Below are positions 5,672 to 26,021 of a stretch of DNA of 31,629 nt, in pieces. This DNA comes from a virus (Duplodnaviria > Caudoviricetes). Each line of letters begins with the position of its first letter. The stretch's first letter is position 1. The DNA lies in the IMG/VR virus record IMGVR_UViG_3300048670_000254, positions 1 through 31,629 of that record; one strand, written 5' to 3'. The position numbers were made by a program, and so were the translations under genes. Below the pieces are notes generated by a model that was not told where the DNA came from, did not search any database, and saw only the letters and a list, made by a program, of their open reading frames with translations.

Positions 5672-6153
5672 TCTTTAAATCCAACTACTGAAAATGACCA
5701 ATATAGATCTCTCTCGCTATTTATAACATTTATAAATCCAATATCGTTTAGTGTTTTTGCTATGTCCTTTGGATGGAAAATGTGCTTATGTTTGCGATTA
5801 TTTTGAGGCAACCAATATTCCATATCTGGATGTGGCAAGTATAGGAATAGTGTTCCCTTTGGACGCAAGTGATCTTTCCAGCACAAAAGCGAATCAATGT
5901 AATTTTCTGTATGTTCTAGCGTATGAGAGCTAAATATAAAGTCATATGTTTCATCTGGAAGATTTGTTGCATTAAATCCATCATCTTTGCTTGTGTTTAT
6001 AGTCCTTGCATTCGGGAAATTCCACTTATCTGTTCCCCCTATATCTAGGCCATTCCCAACACAGAATTGCCTTGCAAATTCAATTATATATGAGCAAGCG
6101 TTTCCATTTTTAATATATTCTGGATATATTTTATCTTTATATTCAAAGATCAT
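5668..6153 (-). CDS. Class I SAM-dependent methyltransferase (Methyltransf_11-like)
   Basis: GLDIGG, YDFIFSSHTLEH, LRPKGTLFLYLP. Confidence 0.85.
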   Translation of the reverse strand: MIFEYKDKIYPEYIKNGNACSYIIEFARQFCVGNGLDIGGTDKWNFPNARTINTSKDDGFNATNLPDETYDFIFSSHTLEHTENYIDSLLCWKDHLRPKGTLFLYLPHPDMEYWLPQNNRKHKHIFHPKDIAKTLNDIGFINVINSERDLYWSFSVVGFKE

Positions 6154-7826
6154 GGGTTTCTTTCTTCAAAAATCTTCTTTCCAAGCTCATAGTTTGCCAT
6201 GGAATTATGAGTCCGAAATACGACATCCTTTTCTGCTCCGGTAAAGAACGGATTCTGGTGATTAAACACAAGATCTGTGGCATCCACCTGAATGTCCTTG
6301 GTTCTTTTTGTGAATTCGTTATCTGCGTAAATACCCGAACACTTTGTATATTCAGGTGCGTAAAAATGACCGCCAAGGTAATCTAGGGTTGGCTTGGTCA
6401 TAATTCCGATGCATAGCAGATCATCTTTACGGTGACCGTCCGATACCGCAAGAACTGCTGGCTTGGTGGGATCTGGAAGTCTGCGCCGGATCTCTTCATC
6501 CCATCCAACCGGAGGAACAAAATCGTCGGATACCTGAATGATGTATTTTCCTTTGGCTTGTTTCATGGTTTCGTTCCACGCACCGACACACTTGCCATCT
6601 GGTACGATCACTCTCTCGTTTCCGGCGTACTCATCTGCATCCACATCCACCCCTAAAAGATGCTGAATTTTGTTGGGTTGTTTGGCCATGGATAGCCAAG
6701 CCCACCGTGCAGACTGGAATCCATTCGGCCTAGCCGTGGCATGGCACAAAGTAATGTCGATTTCTCCAAAATTTTTTTCTTTGTCTTCTTGCAGAAACTT
6801 GACCAGATCCGTCATGCCTAATGCCCTAGCGCAACGCTGGTAAAGATCCGGAGCCTCCCACTTGTAGATTGCGTCTTTTGTAGTCCAGTAGGACTGATTT
6901 GGTAGCGGTATTGAACAGCAGGATCTAGCCAGTGCCAAAGCCTCGGTGTAATGCTTCCGGTTGTAGTAATCTTCCGCAATATAATACAGAGCCTCGATCC
7001 GTTGAGGCTGTAGGGCATATGCCTTGAAAAGCTCTTCTCTCTTGGCGACAGGATCAGCAAGAGATCTGCCGATGATTGTATGGCACTGAACCCGAAGAAT
7101 GATGTCCAGCTTGTCGTCGGCCAAGGCACATTTAGCGTGTTGAATCGCTTCCTGATATTGTCCGGACAGGAAATGCTCTTCTGCCTTGTAGAATCGAAAT
7201 AGCCAGTTTTCACGGAGCGACTCATCCAAAATTTTATGGTTACGGATGACGCTGGATTTCTTGTGATCGATTGGCGCATGAACAATGAGTCCGTGATGCG
7301 TTCCCATGGCTTTAGCCGAATCCTTGAGTGGCTTTAATTGTTCGTGAACTGGATACCGCCAGTGAAACTTGCCTTTTCTAGTGATTCTTTCACGCACTGG
7401 GCAAAGTCCGGCCAAAGGCACGGAATACCCAAAAAAAATGCAGTCATGGTCATCAACCCTAGAAGCCATCTCAAACAGCACCTTATCGGCTCCTTCAACC
7501 AGAAGGTCATCTGCATCAAACCACATGGCAAAGTCGCTTGTACAGGCATTTAAAGCGCAATTTCTGGCATCTGCGAAGCTATCCAGATGATCCCAGTCCT
7601 CGTTTCCGGACTTGTTTCTATAAACTACAACCTTTGCGCCGTACTTCTTGGCTATTTCCTCAAGGATAGGCAAACCCTCATCCGTATGCTTGCCCATGGC
7701 AGAACAAAGCACGATTTCATCCGGCTTTAGCTTTGAGAACGACTCAAGCGATCTGGCAATATATTTGGAGGCACACTCTCTGGAAACAATGGCGTACAGC
7801 GAAAAAGTAAATGGGAATTTGTCCAT
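6150..7826 (-). CDS. GT2-like glycosyltransferase - TPR - second GT-A domain
   Basis: SFADARN...WFDADD...VHEQL, TPR-like helices, then VGAWNE...QVSDDF...YADNEFT. Confidence 0.85.
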   Translation of the reverse strand: MDKFPFTFSLYAIVSRECASKYIARSLESFSKLKPDEIVLCSAMGKHTDEGLPILEEIAKKYGAKVVVYRNKSGNEDWDHLDSFADARNCALNACTSDFAMWFDADDLLVEGADKVLFEMASRVDDHDCIFFGYSVPLAGLCPVRERITRKGKFHWRYPVHEQLKPLKDSAKAMGTHHGLIVHAPIDHKKSSVIRNHKILDESLRENWLFRFYKAEEHFLSGQYQEAIQHAKCALADDKLDIILRVQCHTIIGRSLADPVAKREELFKAYALQPQRIEALYYIAEDYYNRKHYTEALALARSCCSIPLPNQSYWTTKDAIYKWEAPDLYQRCARALGMTDLVKFLQEDKEKNFGEIDITLCHATARPNGFQSARWAWLSMAKQPNKIQHLLGVDVDADEYAGNERVIVPDGKCVGAWNETMKQAKGKYIIQVSDDFVPPVGWDEEIRRRLPDPTKPAVLAVSDGHRKDDLLCIGIMTKPTLDYLGGHFYAPEYTKCSGIYADNEFTKRTKDIQVDATDLVFNHQNPFFTGAEKDVVFRTHNSMANYELGKKIFEERNP

Positions 7827-8042: not shown

Positions 8043-9005
8043 TTACGAAGCAGAGTAGGAAGTCGTGATCAATTCGCAAGCAGTCGAATCAATGACCTTC
8101 GTAGTCCGGTTAGAGCGAACTCGGAGGATGTTTGACCGACGACCTTCGTCCCGATAGCTTTCGGCAACGAAGGGAGCAGAAGCATCTTCGCTCCAGATGA
8201 TCGTGCGACCCACACCACCAGCGGCGAAATCGCCACCCGCAGTTTGAGCAACCGCCACATAGGTTGTGGGGAAGATGAACGCACCGCTGAAGGTTTGACC
8301 TTTGGCCGCAGAATTTTTGGCCGCCTTGCCAACCAGAATTTTTTCAACTCCGGCCGCTTGAGCGATTTCAGCTTCCGACAGCAACCGACGACTGTCCGTG
8401 GCAACCACACCGAAGAATTGATTCTGGGTGAGGGGGCTACGACGAACCAGATCAAAGACCTCTTGGTTCATAATAACAGTGTTGGCGATGACACCTTTCT
8501 TCAGCAACCGCTGTTTGGCGGCCGCCACATCTGCCACGAAGTTAACCGTGGAGAGCGAGGAAACAGTGTAGTTAACCAGAGCGTTTGTCGCATTGAAAAC
8601 GCTGGCATCAAACAAGGTTGTAGCACATTCGGCTTCGTGACCAATCTGAATGTTGCGGAGAAGGATCTTTGCAGTTTCGGTTTCGAGGCCGAAAAAGCGA
8701 GACACATCTGACGCAAGTGCATCAGGTACAACCTCTTCCAAGCCGAACTCAACGCAGGTAAAATTATCATTATCGAATGCGCGGCTGGACCGTGGATATG
8801 CGGACCCCGGTGCCACTTTCGAGGCATCCGAATTCAACAATTCAGCGTTTCCAAGTTGCAATTTGAGGTACTGTCCGGCACGAACAGGGCTGTTATAGAT
8901 AGGGAATACATCGGTTCCGATGAACCCCTGATCCATTTGACTGGCCTGAATAAGAGCCGTTGTGATGTCGCCACGCAGGGTAGCGTTACTGGTGAGATAA
9001 GACAT
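8043..9005 (-). CDS. Major capsid protein (HK97 fold, GpE-like)
   Basis: 320 aa, FIGTDVFP, EFGLEEVVPD, ANTVIMN, YRDEGRRSNILRVR. Follows protease and decoration genes, has an AGAAAGGA SD and a downstream terminator. Confidence 0.85.
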   Translation of the reverse strand: MSYLTSNATLRGDITTALIQASQMDQGFIGTDVFPIYNSPVRAGQYLKLQLGNAELLNSDASKVAPGSAYPRSSRAFDNDNFTCVEFGLEEVVPDALASDVSRFFGLETETAKILLRNIQIGHEAECATTLFDASVFNATNALVNYTVSSLSTVNFVADVAAAKQRLLKKGVIANTVIMNQEVFDLVRRSPLTQNQFFGVVATDSRRLLSEAEIAQAAGVEKILVGKAAKNSAAKGQTFSGAFIFPTTYVAVAQTAGGDFAAGGVGRTIIWSEDASAPFVAESYRDEGRRSNILRVRSNRTTKVIDSTACELITTSYSAS

Positions 9006-9389: not shown

Positions 9390-9860
9390 TTAGAAGCTTT
9401 TGAAGCCACCAGCGGAAAGCTCTTTCCGATATTGTTCAGTGTATTTACCGATGCAAAGACGAAGAGCTTCGCCCTTGGAGATGTTGCCATGCTTCATCTC
9501 GAAATTTACAAGTTCCGCAAAGGTTTCGGGTTTCTTGCTCTCGACAGCGGGAGCCGAGTGAGCAACAGGAGCCGATACCATCTTGGAAAGTTCGGTCTTG
9601 ATTTCATTCAAAACTCCGGAAAGCTCAATCTTGTTGGCTTCCACGGCAGACATATCCTCGGTGGGATTCCCCTCGCTACCTTTTTTATCAATGGTAGGAG
9701 TAGGAGCAGAAGCTTTTTCATCAACGGTAGCTTCGGGAGGATTCATTTTGGCTTCGAGGGCAGATAAACGGCTGGCAAATTCTTCCATGTGCTTTCCGTA
9801 ATCAGCCATGTTGTAAGAAGGTGCAACCTTCTTTTCAGTGGTATCAGGCGTAGTTTCCAT
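9390..9860 (-). CDS. Nested in-frame scaffolding protein (internal start METTPDTT)
   Basis: ATG 9860 follows the protease core and is preceded by TTGACA at 9878-9883, like other structural genes. Confidence 0.5.
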   Translation of the reverse strand: METTPDTTEKKVAPSYNMADYGKHMEEFASRLSALEAKMNPPEATVDEKASAPTPTIDKKGSEGNPTEDMSAVEANKIELSGVLNEIKTELSKMVSAPVAHSAPAVESKKPETFAELVNFEMKHGNISKGEALRLCIGKYTEQYRKELSAGGFKSF

Positions 9861-10856
9861 ATTACTCAAATTAACCTTGTCAACTACTATACGACCGGAA
9901 TCCGCTGAAAACAGACCTGTAGGGTTCGAAGCGGGATGTTGAACCAAATCAGCAGAGTACAATTCAGAGCATCTCGCAAGGTCAAAATTTGACCCATTTA
10001 GCTCTGATTCTCCACTGAACGAAATCGAAATCCCAAACGCATCTGGGATCTCGGAGGCAAGATCCATGTAGTATTTAGCACGATCTTGGCGACTCTTGAG
10101 AAAAGTCAAATCAGCGAGAAGCTTGCTTCCGCTTTCGTCAATTCTGAAGTTCGTGAGCTTGCCGATAATATCAGCAATCCCTGCTCCGTGATTTTCATTT
10201 ACCTTCACTCCACCCTTGAATTGTTCCGCACAATTCTTTACCTGTTCAAGTGTGGTTCCGTCGATTTCAAGCTGATGGCCTTTTGCCATGCCTGTAGTTA
10301 ACACCGAAACACCTTTAAGAGTCATATCGCCACCATCCTCATAGTTGTACTTTTTCTTTCCCTGTCCCTGAATAACTGCCGTGGGGATAGTTCCGGCTGG
10401 TGCGCCTCCACCGTTAACACCACCAGCAGAGGTCATCAAATCCTCTTGAGCGTCCTCTTCGTCTTCAGAGGTGGACTTTCCAATAGCTGGTTCGATGTCC
10501 GTAGAGTCGCTTCCGGATTCGCTGTTATTCTGGAGATCCTCTTCGTTATTATCGAAGATCTCGGATGCAATTTCAGCACGGTCAGAGGCATCTGGGAAAA
10601 GTCCAATCATGCCCTCGTCGGCCACAAAACGACCCATAAACTCTGCAAATGTCTCATCCTCGTTAGGGGTTAAAAGGGTACTATCAGAAGCCAAATTCTT
10701 CTTTTTCTGTTTTTTCTTGGTTTCCCTAAAGATGCTTGCCCCTACAGCATACCGCTGTTTGTTGTCCGTGTAATCCTTTACGGCTGTAGAGTTACCCATG
10801 AATTTTGACATGAAATCAGCAAGAGACTCGCCTTTTTTGGGTGTAGGTAGGGGCAT
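9390..10856 (-). CDS. Prohead protease-scaffold fusion with N-terminal extension
   Basis: GVSVLTTGMAKGH, NENHG, FGISISF, SADLVQHPASNPTGLF protease core; acidic coiled C-terminus; position before the capsid genes. Confidence 0.75.
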   Translation of the reverse strand: MPLPTPKKGESLADFMSKFMGNSTAVKDYTDNKQRYAVGASIFRETKKKQKKKNLASDSTLLTPNEDETFAEFMGRFVADEGMIGLFPDASDRAEIASEIFDNNEEDLQNNSESGSDSTDIEPAIGKSTSEDEEDAQEDLMTSAGGVNGGGAPAGTIPTAVIQGQGKKKYNYEDGGDMTLKGVSVLTTGMAKGHQLEIDGTTLEQVKNCAEQFKGGVKVNENHGAGIADIIGKLTNFRIDESGSKLLADLTFLKSRQDRAKYYMDLASEIPDAFGISISFSGESELNGSNFDLARCSELYSADLVQHPASNPTGLFSADSGRIVVDKVNLSNMETTPDTTEKKVAPSYNMADYGKHMEEFASRLSALEAKMNPPEATVDEKASAPTPTIDKKGSEGNPTEDMSAVEANKIELSGVLNEIKTELSKMVSAPVAHSAPAVESKKPETFAELVNFEMKHGNISKGEALRLCIGKYTEQYRKELSAGGFKSF

Positions 10857-10917: not shown

Positions 10918-11013
10918 CTAGAATAGTTTAAATACGAAGTGGATCACCAGCATATAAAAGAAGCTGGCTAGAATCCACCCGATGCAGATGTGTTTCAGAT
11001 CTCGATAGTTCAT
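10918..11013 (-). CDS. Possible 31-aa membrane peptide
   Basis: MNYRDLKHICIGWILASFFYMLVIHFVFKLF*; ATGA overlap with the stop of 11010..11231. Confidence 0.45.
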   Translation of the reverse strand: MNYRDLKHICIGWILASFFYMLVIHFVFKLF

Positions 11014-11231
11014 GCTTCCTCCTGTATCGCCAGATCCGCTAGTTTGTTCTCGATCTTGGTCTTAACGGCAACGATTGCTCCGTACTCCGTATCAGACAGT
11101 ACCCTGTGAGGCCATACCTGTCTGCCGTCACGCCCTAGCAGTATCCAGCTATCCGTATCCACTTCTACTGCCCTGTCGCATTTAAGGACAGCCCTTAGAT
11201 CGTCTGGAAGGTTTAGAACGATTGTGTTCAT
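11010..11231 (-). CDS. Hypothetical protein
   Basis: GAGGAGG SD and ATGA coupling to the upstream ORF. Confidence 0.7.
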   Translation of the reverse strand: MNTIVLNLPDDLRAVLKCDRAVEVDTDSWILLGRDGRQVWPHRVLSDTEYGAIVAVKTKIENKLADLAIQEEA

Positions 11232-11437
11232 GTTAATGCCTCCTCATATAGTTTGACCGTCCTGTTGCACCCATAATAGTAGCCACCGCCCAAGTGTCGG
11301 GTTGGATAGCCAACTACCTCAACGCACTCTGCTTGCGTCTTATTGACCTTCTTCAAAACTTGGTAAGAAGCCTTATTATCAGAATACTGATAAAACCTCT
11401 CACCGATAGCTACATCTTTAAATAGCTTGATGTTCAT
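11228..11437 (-). CDS. Hypothetical protein
   Basis: AGAAAGGA SD; FKDVAIGERF is typical of small phage proteins. Confidence 0.7.
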   Translation of the reverse strand: MNIKLFKDVAIGERFYQYSDNKASYQVLKKVNKTQAECVEVVGYPTRHLGGGYYYGCNRTVKLYEEALT

Positions 11438-11464
11438 GGTTTTGTTTCCTTTCTTATTGTGGCA

Positions 11465-11983
11465 CTAGATTACATAATCCAGAGCCGTTTGGCAAGAAGA
11501 ATCTTTTTCACTTGGAATAAACTCCCATGCGTCCGTGATCCGCTGGCGAGGAGTGTTTGGAATGTTGTCGAGAATGATTCCATCAACTACCGCAAAGGCA
11601 TGACCGCTACGACGACAATAGAATCTCCCCTTCGAATGCTTTTGAATAAATTCACCAATCGTTACTGGGGCTGAAACAAGATTTAGACTTTTGTCTCTTC
11701 CAATAATTCTTGAAAACAAAATGTTGCTTTTTTCGGCTTGATCCAAGAGCGTCTGGCAGTGGAACCCCCGCCGTCTCTGCCGTCCTGCATCCTTGCCGAT
11801 TTTATGAGCCACGCTGTATTCGATGCTGGCCGATAAAGCCAAGGCACGAATGGTGCAATCACGATATTCTTTCAATCGTGTTTTACTTAACCCCCCATCG
11901 GTTTTGACTTGAGGAACGCCATACTTGTTTCCGACCGGATAACTTTTTCCGTCGATTTGGATTCTGGTTTGTTCATTTGTCAT
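11465..11983 (-). CDS. Conserved phage protein with DCxxRA...GHxxAV (papain/C39-like Cys-His pattern)
   Basis: DCTIRALAL and SGHAFAVVDG; has its own promoter. Confidence 0.65.
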   Translation of the reverse strand: MTNEQTRIQIDGKSYPVGNKYGVPQVKTDGGLSKTRLKEYRDCTIRALALSASIEYSVAHKIGKDAGRQRRRGFHCQTLLDQAEKSNILFSRIIGRDKSLNLVSAPVTIGEFIQKHSKGRFYCRRSGHAFAVVDGIILDNIPNTPRQRITDAWEFIPSEKDSSCQTALDYVI

Positions 11984-11989
11984 GGTGGT

Positions 11990-12018
11990 AATCTACATCA
12001 TTCCAACCCGCTTGGCAA
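11990..12018 (-). promoter_or_regulatory. Sigma70-like leaderless promoter TTGCCA-17-TAGATT-6-ATG
   Basis: -35 at 12013-12018, -10 at 11990-11995, ATG at 11983. Confidence 0.65.
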
Positions 12019-12066
12019 GCATTATTTAATCTTTTTTTACCCCCCTAAAATTATTTTATTTTTCTG

Positions 12067-12095
12067 TTGACTTCGAAGCCGTTTCGCATTACACT
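12067..12095 (+). promoter_or_regulatory. Sigma70-like leaderless promoter TTGACT-17-TACACT-6-ATG
   Basis: -35 at 12067-12072, -10 at 12090-12095, ATG at 12102; AT-rich tract upstream. Confidence 0.7.
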
Positions 12096-12101
12096 CCTCC
12101 C

Positions 12102-12956
12102 ATGATCAAAAACATTCAAGACATCCAAAAGCTGAAACCCACCGAAATTCGCAAACTCTCGAAAGCCGAACTTGAGGAGATCGTTCCTCTTCTTCGTGCC
12201 GAGTACAAAAGGTACGAATCGTTTGCCAGTGTTATTAAAAATGATTCTGAACGGCGTGAGGCTGTGAATACTGAATGGCGTTTAAGGGATTTGTATGACG
12301 CTGGCCGGAACCGCTTGGAGAAGTATGCCAAGGAGGAACGCAAAGCTCTCCGTGAGGCCAAGCAGAATTCCAAGCAGATTGAGCGTAAGCGGATTGAGGA
12401 TCTTGCCTCTACTCTCCGCAAGAACTTGGTTCCTGTTGAGAATGCTCTTGTTAAATCAATCATTGAGCGTGATAACTTCAGGCTCGAAAAACAGGACGAA
12501 TTCTTCAAGTCGCTCCCCACTCCGTATGTGTTCAACTTTACTTCTCGGTATTCTCAAGAAAAAGACGAAATTGAATACATCGAATTCAATCATCAGTATG
12601 GCCGTTTCTGGAGTTACGAAAGACTTGAAAACGATTATCGGCCTCATGCTCCCAAAAAAGCTTATCAAAAAGACAATCTTTCGGAACGGATTGAAAAAGA
12701 TGCCAAGGATTATGCCAAGACAGCCTGTGACGAGTTTGCTTTCAAGATCGTCCAGAAGACAGAGGAGGAAATCAAAAGCCGTGGCACTGATGACAAGATC
12801 GTTTCGACCTCCTACGAAGGTAATGTGAATCCTTGGGATGGCGGTCAGGTGATTGTCACGACGACCAAGGGCAAGTATGTCTGGAACACCAAGGTGATCC
12901 TGAACTTCTCAAAGTACGGACTCCCCTTCAACCAGTGGCCAACTCGGTTGGCCTAG
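12102..12956 (+). CDS. Hypothetical phage protein (only convincing plus-strand gene)
   Basis: 284-aa ORF with near-consensus promoter, coiled N-half and C-terminal TKVILNFSKYGLPFNQWPTR. Confidence 0.8.
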   Translation: MIKNIQDIQKLKPTEIRKLSKAELEEIVPLLRAEYKRYESFASVIKNDSERREAVNTEWRLRDLYDAGRNRLEKYAKEERKALREAKQNSKQIERKRIEDLASTLRKNLVPVENALVKSIIERDNFRLEKQDEFFKSLPTPYVFNFTSRYSQEKDEIEYIEFNHQYGRFWSYERLENDYRPHAPKKAYQKDNLSERIEKDAKDYAKTACDEFAFKIVQKTEEEIKSRGTDDKIVSTSYEGNVNPWDGGQVIVTTTKGKYVWNTKVILNFSKYGLPFNQWPTRLA

Positions 12957-13055: not shown

Positions 13056-16000
13056 TCAGTCGAAGAGGTTTCCATGGGTTGCCTTTACTGGAGCCGTTCC
13101 TTGGCTCCTATCTGCGTTGCCGTCGATGGAATAGCCGATGTCGGCAATTCCTTCGGAGGTTAATTTAGTCCAAGTCTTTCTAGCCTGTTCAGCAGATCCC
13201 CTGATGTAGTCATATGGAACATACCGTCCGTTTGGCTTATTGAATCGCTTTGAGGCACGATCCAGAGCTACCTTGTCGTCCACATCCACATGAACTAGGC
13301 CGATTGTATATCCAACCGATTTCAGCGTTCTCGCCATTTCAGCAACTTTATTAGAGTTCTTTCCGGTAATGTCGATCAAAAGATTGTGGTTATTGCCCAC
13401 TGCTCTTGGGAATACAACCTTCTCGGATATAAGTGCGGATTCCTCATGGAACGCTCCGGCATTCCATCCTTCAAACCCTTTTGACTTTCCCTTAACCGAA
13501 TCCGGATCGATCTTGGTTGTCTCTTTTCCGTTCAGGATCTTTTCTGCAAATGGCCGTCCGGTGGTTGTTTTGCCACTGGCAGGAGATCCCATGAGGATAA
13601 CGGCAATTGGGTTAGTCGATTGCGCCTTGGGGTTTAATTCGCTATCAATAACAGCCTGTTTCCACTTTTCGTGTTCTGGGGTTGGGCTGTTGAAGGTTTC
13701 GATGAGATCCTTTTTCTGGATGTATCGCTTTGGATCTCGCAGTGACCAGTGGGTAACCGGAGCATTCTCCGATCCCTCTGCTTTGGCCACTTCCTTCTGT
13801 AGTTTGGCCATTTTATCCATAGCCATTTTTGCCTTTGGTTCTGCTTTTAGCTTTTGAACCATTTGATCAATTTCATCGCTTGTAGTGCTTGTTTCGGATT
13901 CTTTGTTTGCCTTGGTGGATTTCCCCTTTACCTTGCCCTTGCCACCTCCACCTCCCTTTCCAGACCAGCGACCATTTTCATCCCTTGGCTGGTTGGGATC
14001 GTAGAATTCAATAACCTTTCCGTTGTATTGGAAAACGAATGATTCAATGGCTACCTCCTCGTCAAACTGGAACCCCTCGGAGCCATCATCCGGTAACTGG
14101 ATAACGATAGGTACATAAATCAACTTGCTACCGTCTGCTAGTTGCTTGGTTGCTAGAGGCTTTGGCTTGGGGCCATTCTCGTACACATACTTCCGGATCG
14201 TATCGACCTCAAAAATTTGCATAAGCTTAATTGCAGTTGGAGGAACAACGCCATCCTTGGTAAAGATTTTGGATACGGCATTCAATCCAGTCTTGCCCAT
14301 CTTTTGAGCCTTGGTTGTGGGGATGTTATCGGCAACGCTCTTGAAGCCATCAGCCAGTACGCTGATAATCCCGATTAACTGCTTCCCACCAATCTTGGGG
14401 GCTGACCCAGAACGCAATACGCCATATTCCATGGCCAGATCTAGACTGTCGGTACTGTACACCTTACCCCCACCCCAAACGCCACTTTTAGAGGGTTTTA
14501 GGCCGTCTTTTCGTATGTCTTTAAGCACATCTGCCGAAGTTCCGTGATATAAAACCGTAGATTGGCCTGTTTTCTTGCTTGCCTCTGCCGGATTATCTTG
14601 CGCCCACTTTGGGGTTGGAGTTGTTCCAGAAGATCCTCCAGAGCCAGTCCATTTGCCAGAATCATCTCGCTTTTGAGATGGATCGTAAAAATCTATCGCT
14701 TGATAGCTCCGGTAATAATTACGCCCTCCCCTTCGTTGTACTCCGAGGCGAACACGATTCGGGAAAGATCGCTCATAGTTGTCGATGATTGATTTGTAGG
14801 CTTTTTTTCCTGCAATCCTTGTGTCTCCACCGATGAACTCTCCGACTCCCCTGACTGCTTCTGATTTTCCATTTATTGCTCCTAGAAATTTGGCAACATT
14901 AGCGGTCAACTGCGATCCTTGGTCTAGGATTGTTACGCTAGTCTTGGCTCTGTCACCTACCATTGTTCTAAAACTAATCCCATTCTCTGACAATATTTTT
15001 CTGACCTCATCCATTGGCCTGTCTGCTGATATTTTATGCAGGATGTCTGGGCCGTCCTTCTTTTTCTGAAATGCAACAACTGCTTTTTGGTTTAGACTCG
15101 CCCCTAGCTTGGATGCTGTGTATTTAAGTTGATCAAAGTCCTTCACTCCGTTTACATCGATTTTAATCGAATTCTCTGCGCCATCCTCCCAATCACCCAC
15201 CCCAGACTCGACCTTGCCATCCATGTCTTGCTTCTTGATGGCATCTTTTGCGATGCTCACGGCTCTAGCGTGTTCTGGCGAATCGATCATCTTTTTCGCC
15301 TCTTCGTAATTCATGTTCTCTTTGATGTTTGGAGAGACAAGGATTTCACCACCCAAACCACCCCCGCCAGTCCACTTGCCGGATTCGTCTCTTGCCTGTG
15401 ATGGATCGTAAAACTCTGTTTTGTCTGAAGAAAAATTATTTTTCTTTGGCTCTCGCTCTATTACATCAGATTTCTTTTCAGGCTCCATGGGATATGGTTT
15501 CCGAACAAAACCATTTTTTTTGTACCATTCGTGAAGCTTTGATTTGGATAAACCTCCGGTTCCGGTTGGGCTTACCGTTGCTGTTATTTTTGCGCCAATC
15601 TTGTCTGCTGAATCTGTAATTTCTTTTAGTGCTTTTGAAGCAATACCTTTCCCTCTAGACTCATCTTTTGTCTCTATATGAGAAATGCGAAGAGTATCGT
15701 CAAATGATGGCTTTAATTCTGCCGTAACTTCACCTTCAGAATATTGTTTTGAAAAGAATGGCCCGCCAATATTTTCCCAACCCTTTTTAGCCATATCGGA
15801 AAGAACTGATGTGGCCTTACTCCATTTTCCAGATTCGTCTCTTGGCTGTGAAGGATCGTAGAATGTGACAACCTGAAACTCTTTTTTCTTCTTGAGATAC
15901 TTCAGGATAGATACCCGCAATACATCGGTAAGGTAGTCTGCAACATCTGCAATATTGATGTCTTCCTGTAGCTCTGTGGGGTTAATGCTGGCCTCCATGG

Positions 16001-16940
16001 GCTTTACCCCTACCTGCTTTTCGACGGCAGACTTAATTTCCTGCCCTTTCTTGATCGATTGATACTCTCTAGTTGCGTTGCTTATGATTCCATGAATTGC
16101 GCTTCGAGTGGCTATAAATGGTAGTACCTGTGGAGCAAATATGGCATTCGTTAATATATCCGCTTGATCGTTTCTGATTCCCTTCAAAGCACCGATAGCA
16201 CCTGCTCCGGCAACCTTCAGTGTTTTATCTACTGCTCCAATTAGCTTCTGGCCATCTTCGGACTTGATCCAATTCGATATTTGCTTTGGAGTGAGATTTC
16301 CGTATTTGGTTTTAATCTTGGCATCTTTTAGGTTTTCACCCAAGGACTCTACGGCTTTCTTGAACTTTCCGTCCTCGATGTCGATCTCCGGATTCTCTTT
16401 TTGAATCCTGCTAATAATCCTTTGAGATATTTCATTTGGGCTTTCTACGCTAGAAACAAATCCTCCGCTAGTCCACTTTCCAGCCTCGTCTCTTTTCTGG
16501 CTAGGATCATAAAGCAGTGTTGCTCCTTGTTCCTTTAGGGCTATCAGATCTGCCTTTAGTTGTTCAAAGTTTGTCTTGTCCGTGATTGGGCCGCCCACGA
16601 TCCACGCATCACAGGTTCTTAAAGAGGCGCATTTGAAGTCGAAGATTTCGCAGTAGCCCAGATCGCCAGCTTGTTCAACTTCCTGTGCGTCTGATCCAAT
16701 GCCTTTACTGATGCAGTTTGTGAGCTTGGTTGTTTGGTTGAATCCGGCGCAGTTACCGCAACGCATGGTTTTTGCTTCTTTGACCGACCCGCCAAAGATC
16801 TTTGCTTTTGCTGTCCAGTATTCTTCATTTGGCTCCTTTGGATTGGCTGGGCCATAGTGTGCTACATCAATAGCTTTCGCTCTGTTGGCGAGATTGGTTT
16901 TGATGTCCTGTGTTGGTAGTGGACACTTACTCTCGGCCAT
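13056..16940 (-). CDS. Polyvalent head-associated protein: Cys-rich domain, unknown module, GNAT, SAM-lyase-like, ART-like and zeta-toxin-like P-loop kinase
   Basis: RCGNC...CEIFDFKC; RGKGIASKAL...WYKKNGF (GNAT); GDWEDGAENS...NQKAV; LYHGTS...VYST...AMEY (ART); MGSPASGKTT...IDPD...HEES...IDIT (zeta). Confidence 0.85.
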   Translation of the reverse strand: MAESKCPLPTQDIKTNLANRAKAIDVAHYGPANPKEPNEEYWTAKAKIFGGSVKEAKTMRCGNCAGFNQTTKLTNCISKGIGSDAQEVEQAGDLGYCEIFDFKCASLRTCDAWIVGGPITDKTNFEQLKADLIALKEQGATLLYDPSQKRDEAGKWTSGGFVSSVESPNEISQRIISRIQKENPEIDIEDGKFKKAVESLGENLKDAKIKTKYGNLTPKQISNWIKSEDGQKLIGAVDKTLKVAGAGAIGALKGIRNDQADILTNAIFAPQVLPFIATRSAIHGIISNATREYQSIKKGQEIKSAVEKQVGVKPMEASINPTELQEDINIADVADYLTDVLRVSILKYLKKKKEFQVVTFYDPSQPRDESGKWSKATSVLSDMAKKGWENIGGPFFSKQYSEGEVTAELKPSFDDTLRISHIETKDESRGKGIASKALKEITDSADKIGAKITATVSPTGTGGLSKSKLHEWYKKNGFVRKPYPMEPEKKSDVIEREPKKNNFSSDKTEFYDPSQARDESGKWTGGGGLGGEILVSPNIKENMNYEEAKKMIDSPEHARAVSIAKDAIKKQDMDGKVESGVGDWEDGAENSIKIDVNGVKDFDQLKYTASKLGASLNQKAVVAFQKKKDGPDILHKISADRPMDEVRKILSENGISFRTMVGDRAKTSVTILDQGSQLTANVAKFLGAINGKSEAVRGVGEFIGGDTRIAGKKAYKSIIDNYERSFPNRVRLGVQRRGGRNYYRSYQAIDFYDPSQKRDDSGKWTGSGGSSGTTPTPKWAQDNPAEASKKTGQSTVLYHGTSADVLKDIRKDGLKPSKSGVWGGGKVYSTDSLDLAMEYGVLRSGSAPKIGGKQLIGIISVLADGFKSVADNIPTTKAQKMGKTGLNAVSKIFTKDGVVPPTAIKLMQIFEVDTIRKYVYENGPKPKPLATKQLADGSKLIYVPIVIQLPDDGSEGFQFDEEVAIESFVFQYNGKVIEFYDPNQPRDENGRWSGKGGGGGKGKVKGKSTKANKESETSTTSDEIDQMVQKLKAEPKAKMAMDKMAKLQKEVAKAEGSENAPVTHWSLRDPKRYIQKKDLIETFNSPTPEHEKWKQAVIDSELNPKAQSTNPIAVILMGSPASGKTTTGRPFAEKILNGKETTKIDPDSVKGKSKGFEGWNAGAFHEESALISEKVVFPRAVGNNHNLLIDITGKNSNKVAEMARTLKSVGYTIGLVHVDVDDKVALDRASKRFNKPNGRYVPYDYIRGSAEQARKTWTKLTSEGIADIGYSIDGNADRSQGTAPVKATHGNLFD
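13962..16511 (-). repeat. Five dispersed YDP(S/N)QxRDxxG(K/R)W peptide repeats
   Basis: At about 16470-16511, 15819-15860, 15369-15410, 14646-14687 and 13962-14003. Confidence 0.9.
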
Positions 16941-18940
16941 TATTCGCTCCGTGCTTTGTCCAATTGACCGACAATTTTTTTAGCCCTTGCGAGTCCGGCA
17001 TCACCGCCCCACCCCATGTATGCTTGCCATCCCTTGCCGTGTTCGCTCCATGTCGAACCCTTCTTGTCCACCTCATGGCGGGACAGGAAGCTATAGATCC
17101 TGCGCCAAGTGCGGGGAGAAAGCTTTTTACGCCCGATAATGTCCCTAGCTCTTGCGATTCCGACCTGCGTCATTCCACGCTGGCTGGCTGGCTTTTCAGC
17201 CCTTACCCGCAAAGCAGATTTGGCCGCCTCGACCATGCCGTCACTGGGGTAAAGATCAATATCAGCGATGCCCTGCATTTCGATTGCATCCAATATCATT
17301 TCGGCATCCTGCTTGGTAAATTCTTTAGATGTGCTTGTACGCCTAGCTCTAGCCGGAACATAGTCGTCTTCTAGGTGCTGTTGCTGAATCTTTGCGATCT
17401 CTTGTTTGGGCTGTTCATCGGGAACCTGTGGTTGTTCCGGTGCTGGTGCTTGAGCCTGTGGGAACGATGGCATGGATGGCTTAAAAGCCTCGGAAATGGA
17501 TTCGATTGGAACACCCATTTCTTGTGCTAAATCCTTTGCGTATTTGACCTCGTAGGCTCGCTGACGCATGGCTTCTTCGTAGTCCTCGCCTTTGGTTCCA
17601 TATGCCTCGGCCGCAGTCATCAGTCCTGCTTTAAACATTGAGATATTTGCTTGCGAATCACGCCCTACATCTATGGTGCTGTCCGATGGATAGATCCACT
17701 TGCCCCTTGTAAAATTGCTGTGAGGGGGGATTTTACCCCTAGAGATTCCGTCTGCGATGACCAAGTTCTTGATCTTATCAAAGAATCGATCCTCTAGGAT
17801 AGTCTGCCAACGCCTGAAGGTGCGGGAAGCCAGTGCCATTTCAAGCCGGACTGTCGGGCCACCCAACTTGGACAAGTCGTAACAGAATCCAAAAGGCAGA
17901 TTGAAAGCCAAGGCAATCATGTGGACGATCAAATCGACATACCCTTGGAAAGCCGACGATGGGCGGTTGCTTTCAAACATCTTCATTTCTGAACCTGTGG
18001 GGATATAGTTGATCTGCCCCCTCTGCATATTTTCTAGGTTCATGCTGTTGCCATAAGAATCTGTTTCAGCCTGATTGAAGTAGGATGCGGGATCGTCGGA
18101 AGATCCGGTTGCATTTGAAATGGTCATAATCCGGAACGCCGCATTCTTAACGGCCAGATTCTCGGCATCCATGGTTTCGGCCAGATCCTTACAGTAGTTA
18201 ATTACAGAGGCCAGATGGCTACGACCACGAACCTCGTCCAGCCGGAGGGGATCATAAATAAACAGGAAAGAAGAGGCGGGAACTTCTTGTGCATCTGTAT
18301 AAAAGTTGCCCTGTGTCCGGCGATATACTTTGTAAGATTCCGTGCGTCCGTACTTATCAAACCTGACTCCACCAATGTATTCTTGGCTGGATGTTGGATT
18401 GTCGAACATACCACCAATACGATCTGCCTCTACAGCCTGAATTCGGATGTCGCTATTAGGATCTACCTGATCACCAATCGATCTCTCCCTAGTAATTACG
18501 AACCCAACATCGCCGTCACGAAGCACGGAACGAAGGGCAAGATGAGAAAGAGCATGAAAATTATTCCTTCCGAAGAAGTCGCACTTCCTGCACCAAGACG
18601 ACCAGTAATCCTCATACGACTGATCAATCGCCCTGTCTCCGGTGCGGGACATATATCTGAAATTACCAAGGGCATACTGCGAAAACTTCAGAAGGATTGA
18701 CCGGATGATTGGATTGTTATCCTCAAGATCACGACCAGCCTTAATCAATTCAATACGCTCGTAGGTAGAATTGTATCCTTCACCACCAGACAATGGCCGT
18801 GATGGTAGCCTATCACGAAGGGGATAAGCTCCGGCAAATCTGGTTAACTCTGTAAGCTTGCACTTATCGGCAAGTCTTTTAACCCCGAACTTGGGGTTAA
18901 TTGCAGTGATGGCTTTCTCAAGAAAATTCAGGCTAGGCAT
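16940..18940 (-). CDS. Portal protein, lambda family, with extra C-terminal domain
   Basis: GRDLEDNNP, VLRDGDVG, IQAVEADRI, GGVRFDKYGRTESY, DEVRGRS; synteny with terL and gpW. Confidence 0.9.
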   Translation of the reverse strand: MPSLNFLEKAITAINPKFGVKRLADKCKLTELTRFAGAYPLRDRLPSRPLSGGEGYNSTYERIELIKAGRDLEDNNPIIRSILLKFSQYALGNFRYMSRTGDRAIDQSYEDYWSSWCRKCDFFGRNNFHALSHLALRSVLRDGDVGFVITRERSIGDQVDPNSDIRIQAVEADRIGGMFDNPTSSQEYIGGVRFDKYGRTESYKVYRRTQGNFYTDAQEVPASSFLFIYDPLRLDEVRGRSHLASVINYCKDLAETMDAENLAVKNAAFRIMTISNATGSSDDPASYFNQAETDSYGNSMNLENMQRGQINYIPTGSEMKMFESNRPSSAFQGYVDLIVHMIALAFNLPFGFCYDLSKLGGPTVRLEMALASRTFRRWQTILEDRFFDKIKNLVIADGISRGKIPPHSNFTRGKWIYPSDSTIDVGRDSQANISMFKAGLMTAAEAYGTKGEDYEEAMRQRAYEVKYAKDLAQEMGVPIESISEAFKPSMPSFPQAQAPAPEQPQVPDEQPKQEIAKIQQQHLEDDYVPARARRTSTSKEFTKQDAEMILDAIEMQGIADIDLYPSDGMVEAAKSALRVRAEKPASQRGMTQVGIARARDIIGRKKLSPRTWRRIYSFLSRHEVDKKGSTWSEHGKGWQAYMGWGGDAGLARAKKIVGQLDKARSE

Positions 18941-18943
18941 AAA

Positions 18944-19369
18944 TTATTTTTTCTGGCAACTGCCCTTTTCGTATGGCTTCACGCCAGCAACAGGTTCGTA
19001 ACCTTCCCAGCATCTTCCTTCTTCTTTGCCCATGTTTTCGGTTGTCTCCTTTTTCCTTGGCAAATCGATATTGAATCCAAGTTTATCAATGTACTGGATT
19101 GCATCGTCGTAATAGTGAGCAACGATGTTTGTGTCGGTTGTAGAAGGGATCTTTGTGTTCACTTGGTAGGCTCTAGCAATAGCCTCTTTGGGTTGCTTTA
19201 AAAGCTCTTCTTTTATGCTGTAATATTGCGCTTTGTCTTCCTCGCTGGATGGATGCTCTGCCCTAGTGATCTTATGGGATAGATCCATCAGTTGCTTGAA
19301 CAGGTTGATTGCCTTGCTTGAGTCTGCAAGCATTTCAATTGCTTTATCGATAAGTTCTAGGATTTTCAT
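18944..19369 (-). CDS. Hypothetical head-region protein with C-terminal CWEGY...GSC motif
   Basis: RCWEGYEPVAGVKPYEKGSC; tightly packed between head genes. Confidence 0.7.
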   Translation of the reverse strand: MKILELIDKAIEMLADSSKAINLFKQLMDLSHKITRAEHPSSEEDKAQYYSIKEELLKQPKEAIARAYQVNTKIPSTTDTNIVAHYYDDAIQYIDKLGFNIDLPRKKETTENMGKEEGRCWEGYEPVAGVKPYEKGSCQKK

Positions 19370-19370
19370 A

Positions 19371-19844
19371 TTATTGCAGTGTTAATAGGTACTTTAGCCT
19401 GTTTAGTTCCCCGACAACTCCATCCCGAAGATTGAGTAGATCGGTATCGGATGCTTTTACGCTCTGTGTGAATTCTCCCATGAGAAAGTCGATTGCTTGA
19501 TTTGCCAGAGTGACTCCGGCTCCATCGACTAGGTTCATAAGAGAAATATTGAAGTTGTTTGTTGCGTAAGCTCTTCCATATCTACCAAAATATGTTTCAA
19601 GAAGCTCGTCAATTGAATTATCTAGGATCTCGTAAATCTTTCCAAAACTATTGTGATAGCTGTAACTTTTAGTCTGCCAGTGGTATATCCGGAACTGGTT
19701 TTGCACATAAAGTAGTTGAGCAACAATGATTTCTGCATTGTTCTTTAGTGAAATCTCTGTCAAAACCTCGACTGGTTCCTTCACTACCTCAAACTCGTTC
19801 TTGAGCTTGTCCACTTTTTCAATCATTTTGTCGAGGTGATTCAT
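19371..19844 (-). CDS. Ferritin/Dps-like four-helix protein (DUF5856-like)
   Basis: YHWQTKSYSYHNSFGKIYE...IDELLETYFG...DLLNLRD...LKYLLTL. Confidence 0.75.
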   Translation of the reverse strand: MNHLDKMIEKVDKLKNEFEVVKEPVEVLTEISLKNNAEIIVAQLLYVQNQFRIYHWQTKSYSYHNSFGKIYEILDNSIDELLETYFGRYGRAYATNNFNISLMNLVDGAGVTLANQAIDFLMGEFTQSVKASDTDLLNLRDGVVGELNRLKYLLTLQ

Positions 19845-20147: not shown

Positions 20148-20326
20148 CACTTGCGCCTATATTTACGCCGTTGTTTTACTCGCTTCCAGATAACTTCGTT
20201 TTTATCAAAATTGATCGATGCAAGCATCATTTTGTTATAAAATGCATATCCAATCCCTGTAACCATCATAAAATAGCTGAATACATGACCAATATAATAA
20301 AAAACATAAGCTAGAATTGTATTCAT
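20144..20326 (-). CDS. Small hydrophobic hypothetical protein
   Basis: ATGA overlap with terL; aromatic hydrophobic N-half and basic tail. Confidence 0.6.
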   Translation of the reverse strand: MNTILAYVFYYIGHVFSYFMMVTGIGYAFYNKMMLASINFDKNEVIWKRVKQRRKYRRKC

Positions 20327-22116
20327 TCTTTTGCCTGTTCAATTTCTATCTTGTCATCTTGAGGCACTGGCATACATCCGGACAGCATGGCTCCTACTAG
20401 ATTCATGCATTCTGCGTCCATTAAGTGGTTATCCTTGCGAATACGATGCCATACCATTTTAGTCCTTCCGGACAGGGGATTATACTTTGCCCTCTTTACC
20501 TCTGCGCTTAAATGGTTGTGCCACTCTTCGGGGCAGTCATCCGGTATCTCCCACTTCGACATTTTGCCAGTCTTTAACAAGCTCAACATATCCTTTACAG
20601 CGGGATTTGACCAGCGAATCACAGGACATTTAGACTTCATCAGCCCCTCTGCCTGTGCTGACCTTCCTGTTCCGGAAAGAGGATCTCCCCAGTTAATCGT
20701 GCTGAATGGGCGAATCATTCGTCCGGTAGGAGTCACATGAACGAATTGGGCAGAGTCAGAACCCAGAAGACAAGTCCACCCCCACTTACAGGCTTGGAAA
20801 TAAACCTCTCTGGTATTGGAGCCACTGTCGCAGAACACCATTTTATCGCCTACACCCCAGTCCAGTTGCAAGGCTCGTAGGGCATCCCATGATTCCAGTC
20901 TCCCACACCACTCCAGCTTGCTTTCGCCATTGTTTTTCCATCCACGCACGACCACCCACATATGGAATCCTTTGGCTTCTTGAATATCCGCTGTGATGAT
21001 TCGCTTTTCGCATTCCTCAAACTTCTGTCCCATCTTGTATCCGGAGCCGGATACCTTTGTCTGGTTCTCCTCCTCGATCTCTACCCAAGGCTGGGCAAGC
21101 ACTGAATTCACGAAATTCTGCAACCCCATGACGCTCTTTTTGTCGTTTAGGAACTGTACGCATAGCTTCCCAAAGGTTTCCCATGGTGAATATATGCCGG
21201 AAAGATGGTAGGACTTCACTTGAGGCTCTGGATTGAGGTTTGTTGGCTTCCATTTGCCCATCCTTAACATCTTTGTCTTGTGGCCATCAGTTATCCTTCC
21301 CTTGCACGAAATGCACTCATAATAGGCACTAGAACGCACTTTTTCGTTATCCCACTCGCCATCTGCATTCTTGGCATTATCATCCCATTTTACTTGTGGC
21401 CAAGTAAGAACCTGTTCCTCGTTACAAAAGGGACATGGCACATAGTAATACCTTTGGTCACCTCTCTTGAAGCTTTGCCAGATATGGCCATAATCTGTGG
21501 TTGGGGTGGATGTTTGTACAGTAAGGGATAGGGGGTAAGTCTTCGTCCTGACCTCTGCCAACTGAATAGAATTGGCTTCCTTGGATGTTGCCTCGGACAT
21601 CTTATCAGTTTCGTCGCAAATCAGTAAGCCTACGCTACGAGATGCAAGATTGGCCGGACTGTTACTGCCAAAAAACCATACCGACATTTTATCGAAATGC
21701 TGTTCCATGAGCTTGTATTTATCCAGATTCTTTGGCTTATGCCGTGCTAATGCCTCACAATCGTCCACCATGGGCAACCAGCGGTACTCGGAGAAGGATC
21801 TGGCTAGATTCTCGTTGGGCATGACCCACATCGTAGGAATGGGCTTTAAATCCAATCTGTAGGCTAGTCCGGCTAGGATCGATGTGGTCTTGGCGGTCTG
21901 CGCCCCCCAGCACAGAATCATGGTTCGCAGTCGCTCGTCCCTGAAGTTTTCCAGTGGTTCCCGAACATATGGGGTTAACAGGGTGGAGTATGGGCCAGCA
22001 GTCGAGGACACTCGCTCTGACAGGTACAGGTTCGTTTCAGCCCATTCTGTTACTGAAAGATCCTTTTTAGGAATCCAGAATGTCTGGGCAAGTATTTCTA
22101 GCTCCTGCGCCGTCAT
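20323..22116 (-). CDS. terL: Terminase large subunit, lambda GpA family
   Basis: GAQTAKT Walker A variant, LLICDETD Walker B, TSTPT, YYVPCPFC...CISC, FVNSVLAQPW, TADIQ, NHLMDAE. Confidence 0.95.
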   Translation of the reverse strand: MTAQELEILAQTFWIPKKDLSVTEWAETNLYLSERVSSTAGPYSTLLTPYVREPLENFRDERLRTMILCWGAQTAKTTSILAGLAYRLDLKPIPTMWVMPNENLARSFSEYRWLPMVDDCEALARHKPKNLDKYKLMEQHFDKMSVWFFGSNSPANLASRSVGLLICDETDKMSEATSKEANSIQLAEVRTKTYPLSLTVQTSTPTTDYGHIWQSFKRGDQRYYYVPCPFCNEEQVLTWPQVKWDDNAKNADGEWDNEKVRSSAYYECISCKGRITDGHKTKMLRMGKWKPTNLNPEPQVKSYHLSGIYSPWETFGKLCVQFLNDKKSVMGLQNFVNSVLAQPWVEIEEENQTKVSGSGYKMGQKFEECEKRIITADIQEAKGFHMWVVVRGWKNNGESKLEWCGRLESWDALRALQLDWGVGDKMVFCDSGSNTREVYFQACKWGWTCLLGSDSAQFVHVTPTGRMIRPFSTINWGDPLSGTGRSAQAEGLMKSKCPVIRWSNPAVKDMLSLLKTGKMSKWEIPDDCPEEWHNHLSAEVKRAKYNPLSGRTKMVWHRIRKDNHLMDAECMNLVGAMLSGCMPVPQDDKIEIEQAKE

Positions 22117-25371: not shown

Positions 25372-26021
25372 CGCTTCTCCAAGATGTAGCCAGCGAATTC
25401 TCCAAGCCGGAAGAACTCGACTGCGTTGAATGGCATTTCATGTTTCATCACTGGCCTCTGGATGCCACATAGCTGTAGCTCCTTGGCTACGATGTCTGCT
25501 GGTTTGACTGCGTTCTGCATTTTCCAATCCATTGTGAGCCTCCTTATTGTTGTTCCTGCGTAACCTTCTTCTGCTTCCATTTTCTCCACCAAAATAATTG
25601 CCCCGCCATAGTTGCATTTCTGCATTAAATCGTCAAGAAATTTTCCTCTTTTATTCACAGGCATGAACATGAATGAAAGAAAGAAGATTGCCAAATCGAA
25701 TGGCTCGTACTCCACCTCCATCGCATCTTGGCAGATTAACTTTCCAATTCCTCCCTTGTAATTGTCTGCCAGTTCCTCGCTCTCTTCGATGGCAAAGAAT
25801 CGCAGATCTCTTTCCTCAATCAGTGGAGTGAGTGCCTTTCCAATATTTCCTGTGGATGCACCAATATCGTAGATCAATCCATCCTTGGGTGCGTAGCTTC
25901 TGGTTATAAAGGCTGTGGCTTGAGTTGCGAAATCATACCAAGGGAGTTGTTCCCTGACATGATTGTCGAAGTTTTGTGCCAGCTTTTCGTCTTTAAATGT
26001 CCAATCTTTAATACCATTCAT
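25368..26021 (-). CDS. CmoA-like carboxy-SAM synthase / SAM-binding protein
   Basis: DWTFKDEKLAQNFDNHVREQLPWY and YDIGASTG parallel the CmoA DWTFDE...FxDMxxRSVPGY and YDLGCSLG; also GGAIILVEK. Confidence 0.75.
   Translation of the reverse strand: MNGIKDWTFKDEKLAQNFDNHVREQLPWYDFATQATAFITRSYAPKDGLIYDIGASTGNIGKALTPLIEERDLRFFAIEESEELADNYKGGIGKLICQDAMEVEYEPFDLAIFFLSFMFMPVNKRGKFLDDLMQKCNYGGAIILVEKMEAEEGYAGTTIRRLTMDWKMQNAVKPADIVAKELQLCGIQRPVMKHEMPFNAVEFFRLGEFAGYILEKR

Follow-up and report, generated by a model that had tools for sequence, protein, structure and literature searches.

A repeated peptide tag in a phage head-module polyprotein, a candidate substrate of the phage's own head protease

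Introduction

The closest described relatives of the system analyzed here are the polyvalent proteins, whose release is ascribed, in the accessible part of the 2017 account, to built-in metallopeptidases (PMC5512222), and the substrates of phage head proteases. In phage T4, internal proteins reach the prohead by means of a 10-residue leader, which is cleaved off by gp21 after L/I-x-E (PMC9026906); the SPN3US protease cuts itself at a motif shared with its substrates (PMC10052503), and in HK97, the cut falls after K103 (PMC10275583), in each case as given in the portion of the source available to us. Here we analyze an open reading frame (ORF) of 1,294 amino acids (aa) at 13056..16940 on the minus strand of the virus record IMGVR_UViG_3300048670_000254 (Duplodnaviria; Caudoviricetes; hereafter, the window is the whole analyzed stretch, positions 1 to 31,629, i.e. 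31,629 nucleotides (nt)), which encodes a polyprotein of six segments, five of them headed by the same short peptide tag. The residue preceding the tag tends to match the type of head protease that the respective phage encodes, suggesting that the chain is packaged into the head as cargo and cut there by the prohead protease of the same phage, in a manner that leaves a protease-independent tag at the N-terminus of each product; we assign this reading a probability of roughly 0.7. For the release of polyvalent-type cargo, the 2017 account invoked built-in peptidases, which are apparently lacking here; the matter also concerns portal- and MuF-type cargo and how such proteins are chosen for ejection.

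Results

Five tag copies divide the polyprotein into six segments

The polyprotein contains five matches to YDPxQxRDxxGxW, a 13-residue tag encoded by 39 nt, starting at aa 144, 361, 511, 752 and 980 (nt 16511, 15860, 15410, 14687 and 14003). These are tag 1 (aa 144-156; 16473..16511), tag 2 (aa 361-373; 15822..15860), tag 3 (aa 511-523; 15372..15410), tag 4 (aa 752-764; 14649..14687) and tag 5 (aa 980-992; 13965..14003), all on the minus strand and preceded by TLL, VTF, TEF, IDF and IEF, respectively, exactly as a first-pass annotation, made by a model from the sequence, had it. The same annotation placed Gly-rich linkers after most tags, and tag 2 indeed lacks one; it also counted five modules, which holds for the tag-headed units and misses an untagged, Cys-rich module of 143 aa at the start of the chain. 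The five tagged segments are basic (isoelectric point (pI) 8.8-9.4) and range from 17 to 34 kDa. The strict motif was found in 0 of 20,000 shuffles of the polyprotein; of these shuffles, 90 contained the looser RDxxGxW one time, 1 contained it two times and none three or more times; the looser pattern R[DNE]xxGx[WF] has no further occurrence in the six frames of the window.

Outside the window, the tag peptide is conserved across prophages of many phyla. Two strict DNA patterns retrieved 121 and 119 stretches from IMG/VR, with an estimate of about 310 for GTDB genomes, and 18 of 58 distant tag-bearing proteins have a portal, MuF or capsid match in Pfam. Tag-bearing prophages of cultured hosts include L256 (Sphingomonas gilva; Mu-like, predicted cut after Ala), L281 (Methylobacterium) and L271 (Paracoccus; DUF2213, after Asp), and L254 (Bradyrhizobium elkanii; HK97-type, after Arg/Lys). 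The tag may resemble short basic-Gly-aromatic motifs of terminase small subunits. A search of PDB with a tag profile gave one weak match (9RKU_Af, E 0.085), which does not include the Y/F-D-P start and was treated as a chance match; the entry is the baseplate of phage 7-7-1 (PMC12796354). A literature search whose coverage excluded subscription journals and supplements turned up no account of the tag or of joints matched to a protease.

The residue before the tag and the type of head protease

In the near clade, the residue before the tag is F in 59 and L in 18 of 87 cases, and F or L followed by 0-3 small residues is found in 83 of the 84 distinct tag contexts; the protease domain of this clade ends in F. 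In distant phages, the corresponding residue is A, K, G, D or N. When 50 tag-bearing records were searched for five protease families, all 12 with XkdF showed K or K-A at the tag-proximal positions, all 4 with a Mu-like protease had A before the tag, and the 6 with DUF2213 had D (three), N (one) or an unclear residue (two). Proteases of the S49/ClpP type were found in 0 of these 50 records, many of which are fragmentary.

The set was widened with two more DNA scans and local profiles over 461 loci, and for each protease we took the residue in a single alignment column at the domain boundary (C-terminal, or N-terminal for XkdF). Clustering at 45% yielded 37 protease clusters, which does not fully remove kinship. 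The boundary residue of the protease recurred at position −1 or −2 of the tag with a score of 0.53, compared to 0.28 for shuffled pairings (0 of 5,000 shuffles as high); positions −3 to −12 showed no excess of this residue, which argues against an effect of composition. Without the window-type and Mu-type clusters, the score was 0.51 vs. 0.30 (2 of 5,000 shuffles). By cluster, K or R precedes the tag in 12 of 17 for S78 and in 9 of 10 for XkdF, and D in 5 of 5 for DUF2213 with a D boundary. Altogether, boundary and pre-tag residues are K/R for the HK97 and XkdF types, D for DUF2213, A for Mu-like proteases and F/L for the window type. On visual inspection, agreement with the tags extends to DUF2213-like proteases that end in N and S78 proteases that end in R.

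Homologous modules differ in the same manner: in the window, F stands before the tag of both the SAM (S-adenosylmethionine)-lyase-like and the GNAT module, whereas K takes this place for the SAM-lyase-like module in L105 and P0041 and for the GNAT module in L386, where K is also the last residue of the protease. F or W was found ahead of the tags in three phages that encode distant window-type proteases (36-40% identity). These observations lend partial support to the first-pass proposal that the prohead protease cuts before each YDP, in that the pre-tag residue follows each phage's own head protease.

In the window, the putative prohead protease-scaffold (9390..10856, minus strand) is assigned by its position before the capsid gene and by its motif, residues H223 and S277, which are invariant in 9 aligned relatives and putatively catalytic. 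Its protease domain ends at F316 and is followed by a scaffold-like tail. Candidate F/L sites number 4.1 per 100 aa in this tail, 3.6 in the protease core and 0.9-1.8 in the capsid and four other proteins; because the core is nearly as dense as the tail, this density was not counted as support for cutting. Separately, the start of the gene (10330-10856) encodes two copies of a small N-terminal domain.

Module exchange at tags and a second tag

Repeats at domain boundaries, and module content and order that vary among relatives, were both anticipated by the first-pass annotation and borne out. Among 38 loci found via the portal, 28 have the tag ORF and 4 more a second tag, 5 break off at the portal or shortly past it, and one distant locus (L038) has neither tag. 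All 7 relatives that were aligned lack the GNAT segment, the gap running precisely tag to tag, and in L009 another unit, of 139 aa, has been inserted at a tag. Contig X6, from another run, is likewise devoid of the GNAT unit and carries additional inserts at tags 1 and 4. In P0026 and P0027, GNAT comes after segment 4, the ADP-ribosyltransferase (ART) precedes segment 4 in L032 and L033, and the zeta unit of L002 is a separate tagged gene. The module types also occur in relatives as stand-alone ORFs with a short leader and a tag, and the relatives' domains include ART-PolyVal (L009) and ADPrib_exo_Tox.

As an independent check, homologues of segment 4 were gathered without the use of the tag and formed 59 clusters. 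The tag lies upstream of the homologue in 15 clusters by a stricter pattern and in 34 by a broad pattern written after the data had been seen, compared to 85 of 1,235 background windows (6.9%) and 1 of 59 inside the domain. In distant phages, segment 4 homologues are also headed by variants of the form aromatic-x-x-x-x-H-P-R...G-x-F or F-N-P-x-H-D-x-x-G-R-F.

The second tag, CGTGxGGFKxGNxC, was found in 17 distinct contexts; L or F stands ahead of it, with one to three small residues in between. It takes the YDP slot in L005, L009-L012, L016, L033-L035, L037, L086 and L670 and heads segment 2, 4, 5 and 6 modules in L010, L011, L035 and P0036-P0040, at times alongside the first tag within a single chain. 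The presence of two unrelated peptides in one slot argues for a function of the peptide, not for shared ancestry of the joints. Neither tag matches Pfam or NCBIfam (one copy of each was scanned). Among 65 partial loci with window-type proteases at about 50% identity, a clear tag was present only in L670; the tagged cargo looks like a clade-level add-on.

Several further observations concern tag-bearing proteins of distant phages. A 2,892-aa protein (L089:1411-10089) carries nine tags, each with K two residues before it, and related modules of 260-340 aa with no Pfam match. Tags lie inside or directly beside protease genes in L199, L203 and L573, e.g. straight after a DUF2213 domain. Anti-CBASS Acb1 domains occur within tag-bearing head-module proteins of L074 and L105.

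The six segments

Segment 1 (aa 1-143; 16512..16940), the untagged Cys-rich module, has a pI of 5.9 and no Pfam match; its relatives in phage records are annotated 'high potential iron-sulfur protein', and one of them adjoins head-protease genes. Segment 2 (aa 144-360; 15861..16511) is a helical module with a hydrophobic stretch of small residues and no significant match in Pfam, NCBIfam, PDB or Atlas. The module identities proposed by the first-pass annotation fared unevenly for the remaining four segments. Only segment 6 (aa 980-1294; 13056..14003), a P-loop kinase of the zeta-toxin family whose sequence holds GSPASGKT (Walker A), exceeds the Pfam cut-off (PF06414, E 2.5e-19, 70 bits vs. a cut-off of 22.3), whereas segment 3 (aa 361-510; 15411..15860), GNAT acetyltransferase-like, matches PF14542 below it (E 1.8e-5). 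A zeta kinase related to segment 6 is also carried by the MuF protein of cyanophage PSS2 (L461:7783-12282), in the translation of which no tag is evident.

Segment 5 (aa 752-979; 14004..14687) has an ART-fold domain with H799 and Y828 and matches below the cut-off to PARP-like PF00644 (E 1.6e-4) and to KptA-like enzymes (E 7e-4). In near-clade homologues, H and Y are conserved and the last strand has no conserved Glu (the third position of H-Y-E), so that, judging by these residues, an H-Y-hydrophobic or KptA-like ART fold appears a better fit than the PARP-type H-Y-E.

Segment 4 (aa 511-751; 14688..15410; minus strand, like the other five) appears SAM-lyase-like in fold and conserved residues and consists of two ferredoxin-like domains. 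In the VIA structure ranking of the AF2 model (pLDDT 93.5, built from 56 homologues), the phage SAM lyase 6ZM9 came second (Z 7.9, root mean square deviation 2.4 Å, 96 of 129 residues, 17% identity), tied with subdomains of RND pumps (Z 7.7-8.0); the T3 enzyme (7OCK_L) scored Z 6.3. The SAM-lyase lead in Atlas stood at 0.82, and Foldseek returned no SAM lyase among the matches listed. E589 and Q618, 29 residues apart, are invariant in the 56 homologues. By order and spacing, and short of a residue-level superposition, this pair appears equivalent to the catalytic pair of the T3 SAMase, E68 and Q94 (given in the accessible part of bioRxiv 10.1101/2023.02.27.530186). The window segment has no match to Pfam PF23780, and 3 of the 56 homologues match it below the cut-off (best E 0.0014). 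Going by the modelled fold and the conserved residues, segment 4 is probably a SAM lyase, which would cleave SAM to MTA. A search for stand-alone segment 4 relatives of 125-399 aa gave none that scored, and DNA searches did find them. An AF2 model of aa 144-979, from an 8-sequence alignment, had a pLDDT of 37 and was not used.

Genomic neighbourhood and habitat

The window contains a lambda-type phage head module, all on the minus strand, in the order terminase, head-tail adaptor, two small genes, portal, the 1,294-aa ORF, protease-scaffold candidate and capsid gene. The terminase large subunit, of the lambda gpA type, lies at 20323..22116 (PF05876, E 1.8e-59), the lambda-type portal with a C-terminal extension at 16940..18940 (PF05136, E 2.4e-48; phrog_21, phrog_2859), and the major capsid protein at 8043..9005 (phrog_1005, E 3.1e-27). 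The polyprotein start overlaps the portal stop by one base, so the gene does lie directly after the portal, as first annotated. The two small genes before the portal (18944..19844) encode a CWxGY protein and a DUF5856 protein, which have similar amphipathic leaders at both starts; in L020, L022, L023, L028, L071, L086 and L037, the CWxGY gene or its helical leader forms a fusion with a tag plus cargo.

Near residue 35 of the portal (N-terminus at 18830-18940), Phe followed by Ala is kept in near-clade portals, and distant portals have a similar Phe; this position is a candidate site for the window protease. The lambda connector undergoes cleavage (PMC3185693). The C-terminal portal domain (phrog_2859; 16940-17320) was also spotted by eye in a DSL-LC01 head gene, and several head proteins carry small domains without a tag. 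The small genes between polyprotein and protease (11010-12956), one of them on the opposite strand (12102..12956), form a stretch that is highly variable among relatives. Further genes, at 3818-7826 and 26008-29493, encode glycosyltransferases (GT2 with TPR, GT47 with radical SAM), a GDP-mannose dehydratase-like protein, a cytidylyltransferase and a methyltransferase; these genes suggest glycosylation of the virion or the DNA.

The phage is uncultured; the public runs that contain window DNA are freshwater or unspecified metagenomes, with no RNA dataset among those listed. Near-clade contigs are present among records of metagenome-assembled genomes (L228, L313, L314), for which binning may account.

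Discussion

A possible route from head to host

By analogy with T4, SPN3US and HK97, from which loading, cutting and release are inferred, the six-module chain would be loaded into the assembling head, probably via an upstream leader motif, as with the capsid targeting sequence of T4. Of the N-terminal leaders, 16 of 20 contain the motif Y-N-[GS]; of the internal joints, 16 of 64 do, the last joint of the window among them, and a few neighbouring proteins have it at their extreme ends. In the window, this leader-like Y-N-G motif (aa 966-979; 14004..14045, minus strand) ends at the predicted cut and matches the N-terminal leaders of the relatives' stand-alone cargo ORFs. In relatives, leaders of 13-19 aa precede the first tag, whereas the window ORF begins instead with the Cys-rich module. 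By analogy, the Y-N-[GS] leader may be the head address. Because the tag lies after the predicted cut and a separate leader lies upstream, the tag is a less likely packaging signal than the first-pass annotation allowed, and the leader is the better candidate.

The chain would then be cut after Phe or Leu just before each tag (in the window, after L143, F360, F510, F751 and F979), 0-3 small residues remaining ahead of it, with the release of five basic enzymes or enzyme-like proteins that share one N-terminal tag and would be ejected with the DNA. The tag probably acts after the cut, since it would remain on the product and is independent of the type of protease. Possibly, although at somewhat less than even odds, it tethers the released enzyme to the DNA or to the inside of the head, so that the enzyme stays during packaging and leaves with the genome. 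That the tag engages the ejection path is less probable, that it helps the protease or the prohead to recognize the joint is slightly less probable again, and some other job is the least probable. After entry, the SAM-lyase-like module would lower SAM, blunting defences that depend on it, e.g. type I restriction and BREX, and host targets would be modified by the other enzyme modules (GNAT, ART-like and zeta-like). Precedent for the anti-defence role, which had been suggested for the modules at large, appears to exist for the SAM-lyase-like module only.

Points against cleavage at the joints

Several points weigh against packaging and cleavage by the head protease. The protease of the window has no match in Pfam, PHROG, NCBIfam or the PDB sequences, and the boundary residues of proteases are presumed, from sequence, to be self-cut sites. 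The boundary columns were picked after examples had been seen; of 91 protease-plus-tag units, 10 were dropped (no aligned residue or an internal tag) and 81 tested, and the window-type and Mu-type proteases each form a single cluster. About half of the cluster score consists of misses, some of them from misaligned columns that were counted as misses; real mismatches are L286, L062, L210 and L394, and a boundary K is paired with R before the tag in L191, L221, L254 and L388. Furthermore, 25 of the 59 segment 4 clusters lack any tag, Acb1 precedes the tag in L074 and L105 and is hence an untagged cargo domain, and some segments hold two domains. In SPN3US, about 80% of the head proteins are uncut, according to the accessible text (PMC10052503).

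Alternative explanations

The protein might be packaged and ejected whole or end-trimmed, as an ordinary polyvalent protein, with the tags as binding pegs and the pre-tag residues as relics of ancestral leaders. The N4 virion RNA polymerase is packaged unprocessed (PMC5512222) and many SPN3US head proteins are uncut (PMC10052503), as far as the available text of these sources goes, and, given that stand-alone ORFs of the same modules bear a short leader and a tag, the fused joints could be inherited leaders. However, F or L is kept at the internal joints of the near clade (in all but one of the 84 contexts) despite very different upstream sequences, and the internal joints of long chains also follow the protease (L089, K at −2 in 9 of 9), so that we consider an intact protein unlikely. 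Still less credible is a late, unpackaged product, a weapon for lysis or against superinfection that is processed or degraded in the producing cell, where the zeta kinase would weaken the wall: zeta kinases block cell-wall synthesis (PMC5512222, accessible text) and the gene would be co-translated with late genes, but fusions of this tag to portal, MuF and capsid proteins exist, and the residue before the tag follows the head protease.

The repeat could also be mainly a DNA cassette for recombination that shuffles domains, the peptide being incidental. Indel breakpoints do fall within tags, as the first-pass annotation would have it in proposing recombination points, the tag copies of the window are identical at 22-34 of 39 nt, and some relatives have identical tag codons above expectation (up to 0.62 vs. 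0.42). Yet the longest exact match between the window copies is 7-14 nt, and at their silent sites 41 of 93 codons are identical, 0.44 vs. 0.41 expected. Since these sites are at chance level, the repeat is kept as protein and the tag DNA of the window is not homogenised. Moreover, the peptide is conserved in prophages of many phyla, and single tags are found at the N-termini of genes, a position that calls for no shuffling partner, which makes the cassette very improbable. Recombination between the 39-nt tag copies would nevertheless explain the module shuffling as a side effect; it is best read as a by-product, because the tag DNA of the window is not homogenised.

Implications

Returning to cleavage by the head protease: should the joints be sites of the head protease, sequence would reveal where domains begin and how the cut is specified, including for DUF2213, XkdF and the unclassified Phe-type proteases. 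The tag would serve as a search handle for ejected counter-defence enzymes. A SAM lyase carried in the virion would act ahead of any phage gene expression. The main prediction is open to a direct test in prophages of cultured hosts.

More broadly, and tentatively, at a little under an even chance, the joints could represent a portable 'cut here, then tag' code that is common to tailed phages of many families, in which a protease-tuned site is followed by one of a few interchangeable tags that keep an enzyme with the genome and bring it into the cell. Were this so, the cassette would suffice for the loading, release and ejection of whatever protein it is attached to, and ejected effectors, among them anti-defence proteins not yet described, could be picked out by their tags straight from sequence.

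Comparison with known systems

By the features that can be tested, as given in the accessible parts of PMC5512222 and PMC9503650, the predicted chain classifies as a phage-type polyvalent protein. Like the polyvalent proteins of Iyer, Burroughs, Anand, de Souza and Aravind (2017, PMC5512222, available text), it unites unrelated domains (GNAT, ART, zeta) in a variable architecture and is encoded among the head genes of a portal-terminase phage; compared to the 2-15 unrelated domains per polypeptide of that class, it has six segments, four with distinct enzyme-fold assignments. Unlike them, it has no Pfam metallopeptidase match, and its joints consist of a conserved tag after a protease-matched residue. 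In the accessible text of the 2017 account, 'prohead' appears only in a reference and 'linker' does not appear; its FTP supplements could show the tag.

The basic cargo and the short leader that ends at a head-protease site, here in the relatives, are shared with T4 IPI-III and Alt and with the substrates of SPN3US gp245 (PMC9026906, PMC10052503, as far as these texts are available). The T4 internal proteins deliver ADP-ribosyltransferase and anti-restriction functions from the head, and the window has predicted ART-like and SAM-lyase-like modules. In contrast to this chain, the T4 cargoes are single proteins, cut after Glu, and the accessible text describes no shared tag on the mature product (PMC9026906); in the window, several enzymes are chained, the predicted site is Phe/Leu instead of the gp21-type Glu site (L/I-x-E; F or L in 83 of 84 near-clade contexts), and the shared tag follows the site in phages of at least five protease types. 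The chain may be likened to T4 internal proteins in its working, but it is not one of them. With the MuF polymorphic toxins Bxa and Apk2 (PMC11699363, available text), it shares a gene in the head module and exchangeable enzyme domains, and many distant tag-bearing proteins are MuF fusions; unlike these toxins, it has several modules instead of one C-terminal toxin, no PF04233 (MuF) match at E 0.05 and no immunity genes identified for the window. Segment 4 may share its modelled ferredoxin-like fold, which scores equally against RND pump subdomains, with the phage SAM lyases (6ZM9; T3 SAMase) and has an invariant Glu and Gln; unlike them, it has a second ferredoxin-like domain, lies within a head-module polyprotein and has a sequence match below the Pfam cut-off.

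Polyvalent proteins and T4-type internal proteins are already known kinds, of which a chain with tagged, protease-matched joints would be a variant. New here are the controlled test across five protease types, the interchange of tags on identical modules and the predicted fold of segment 4, drawn from sequences and a structural model.

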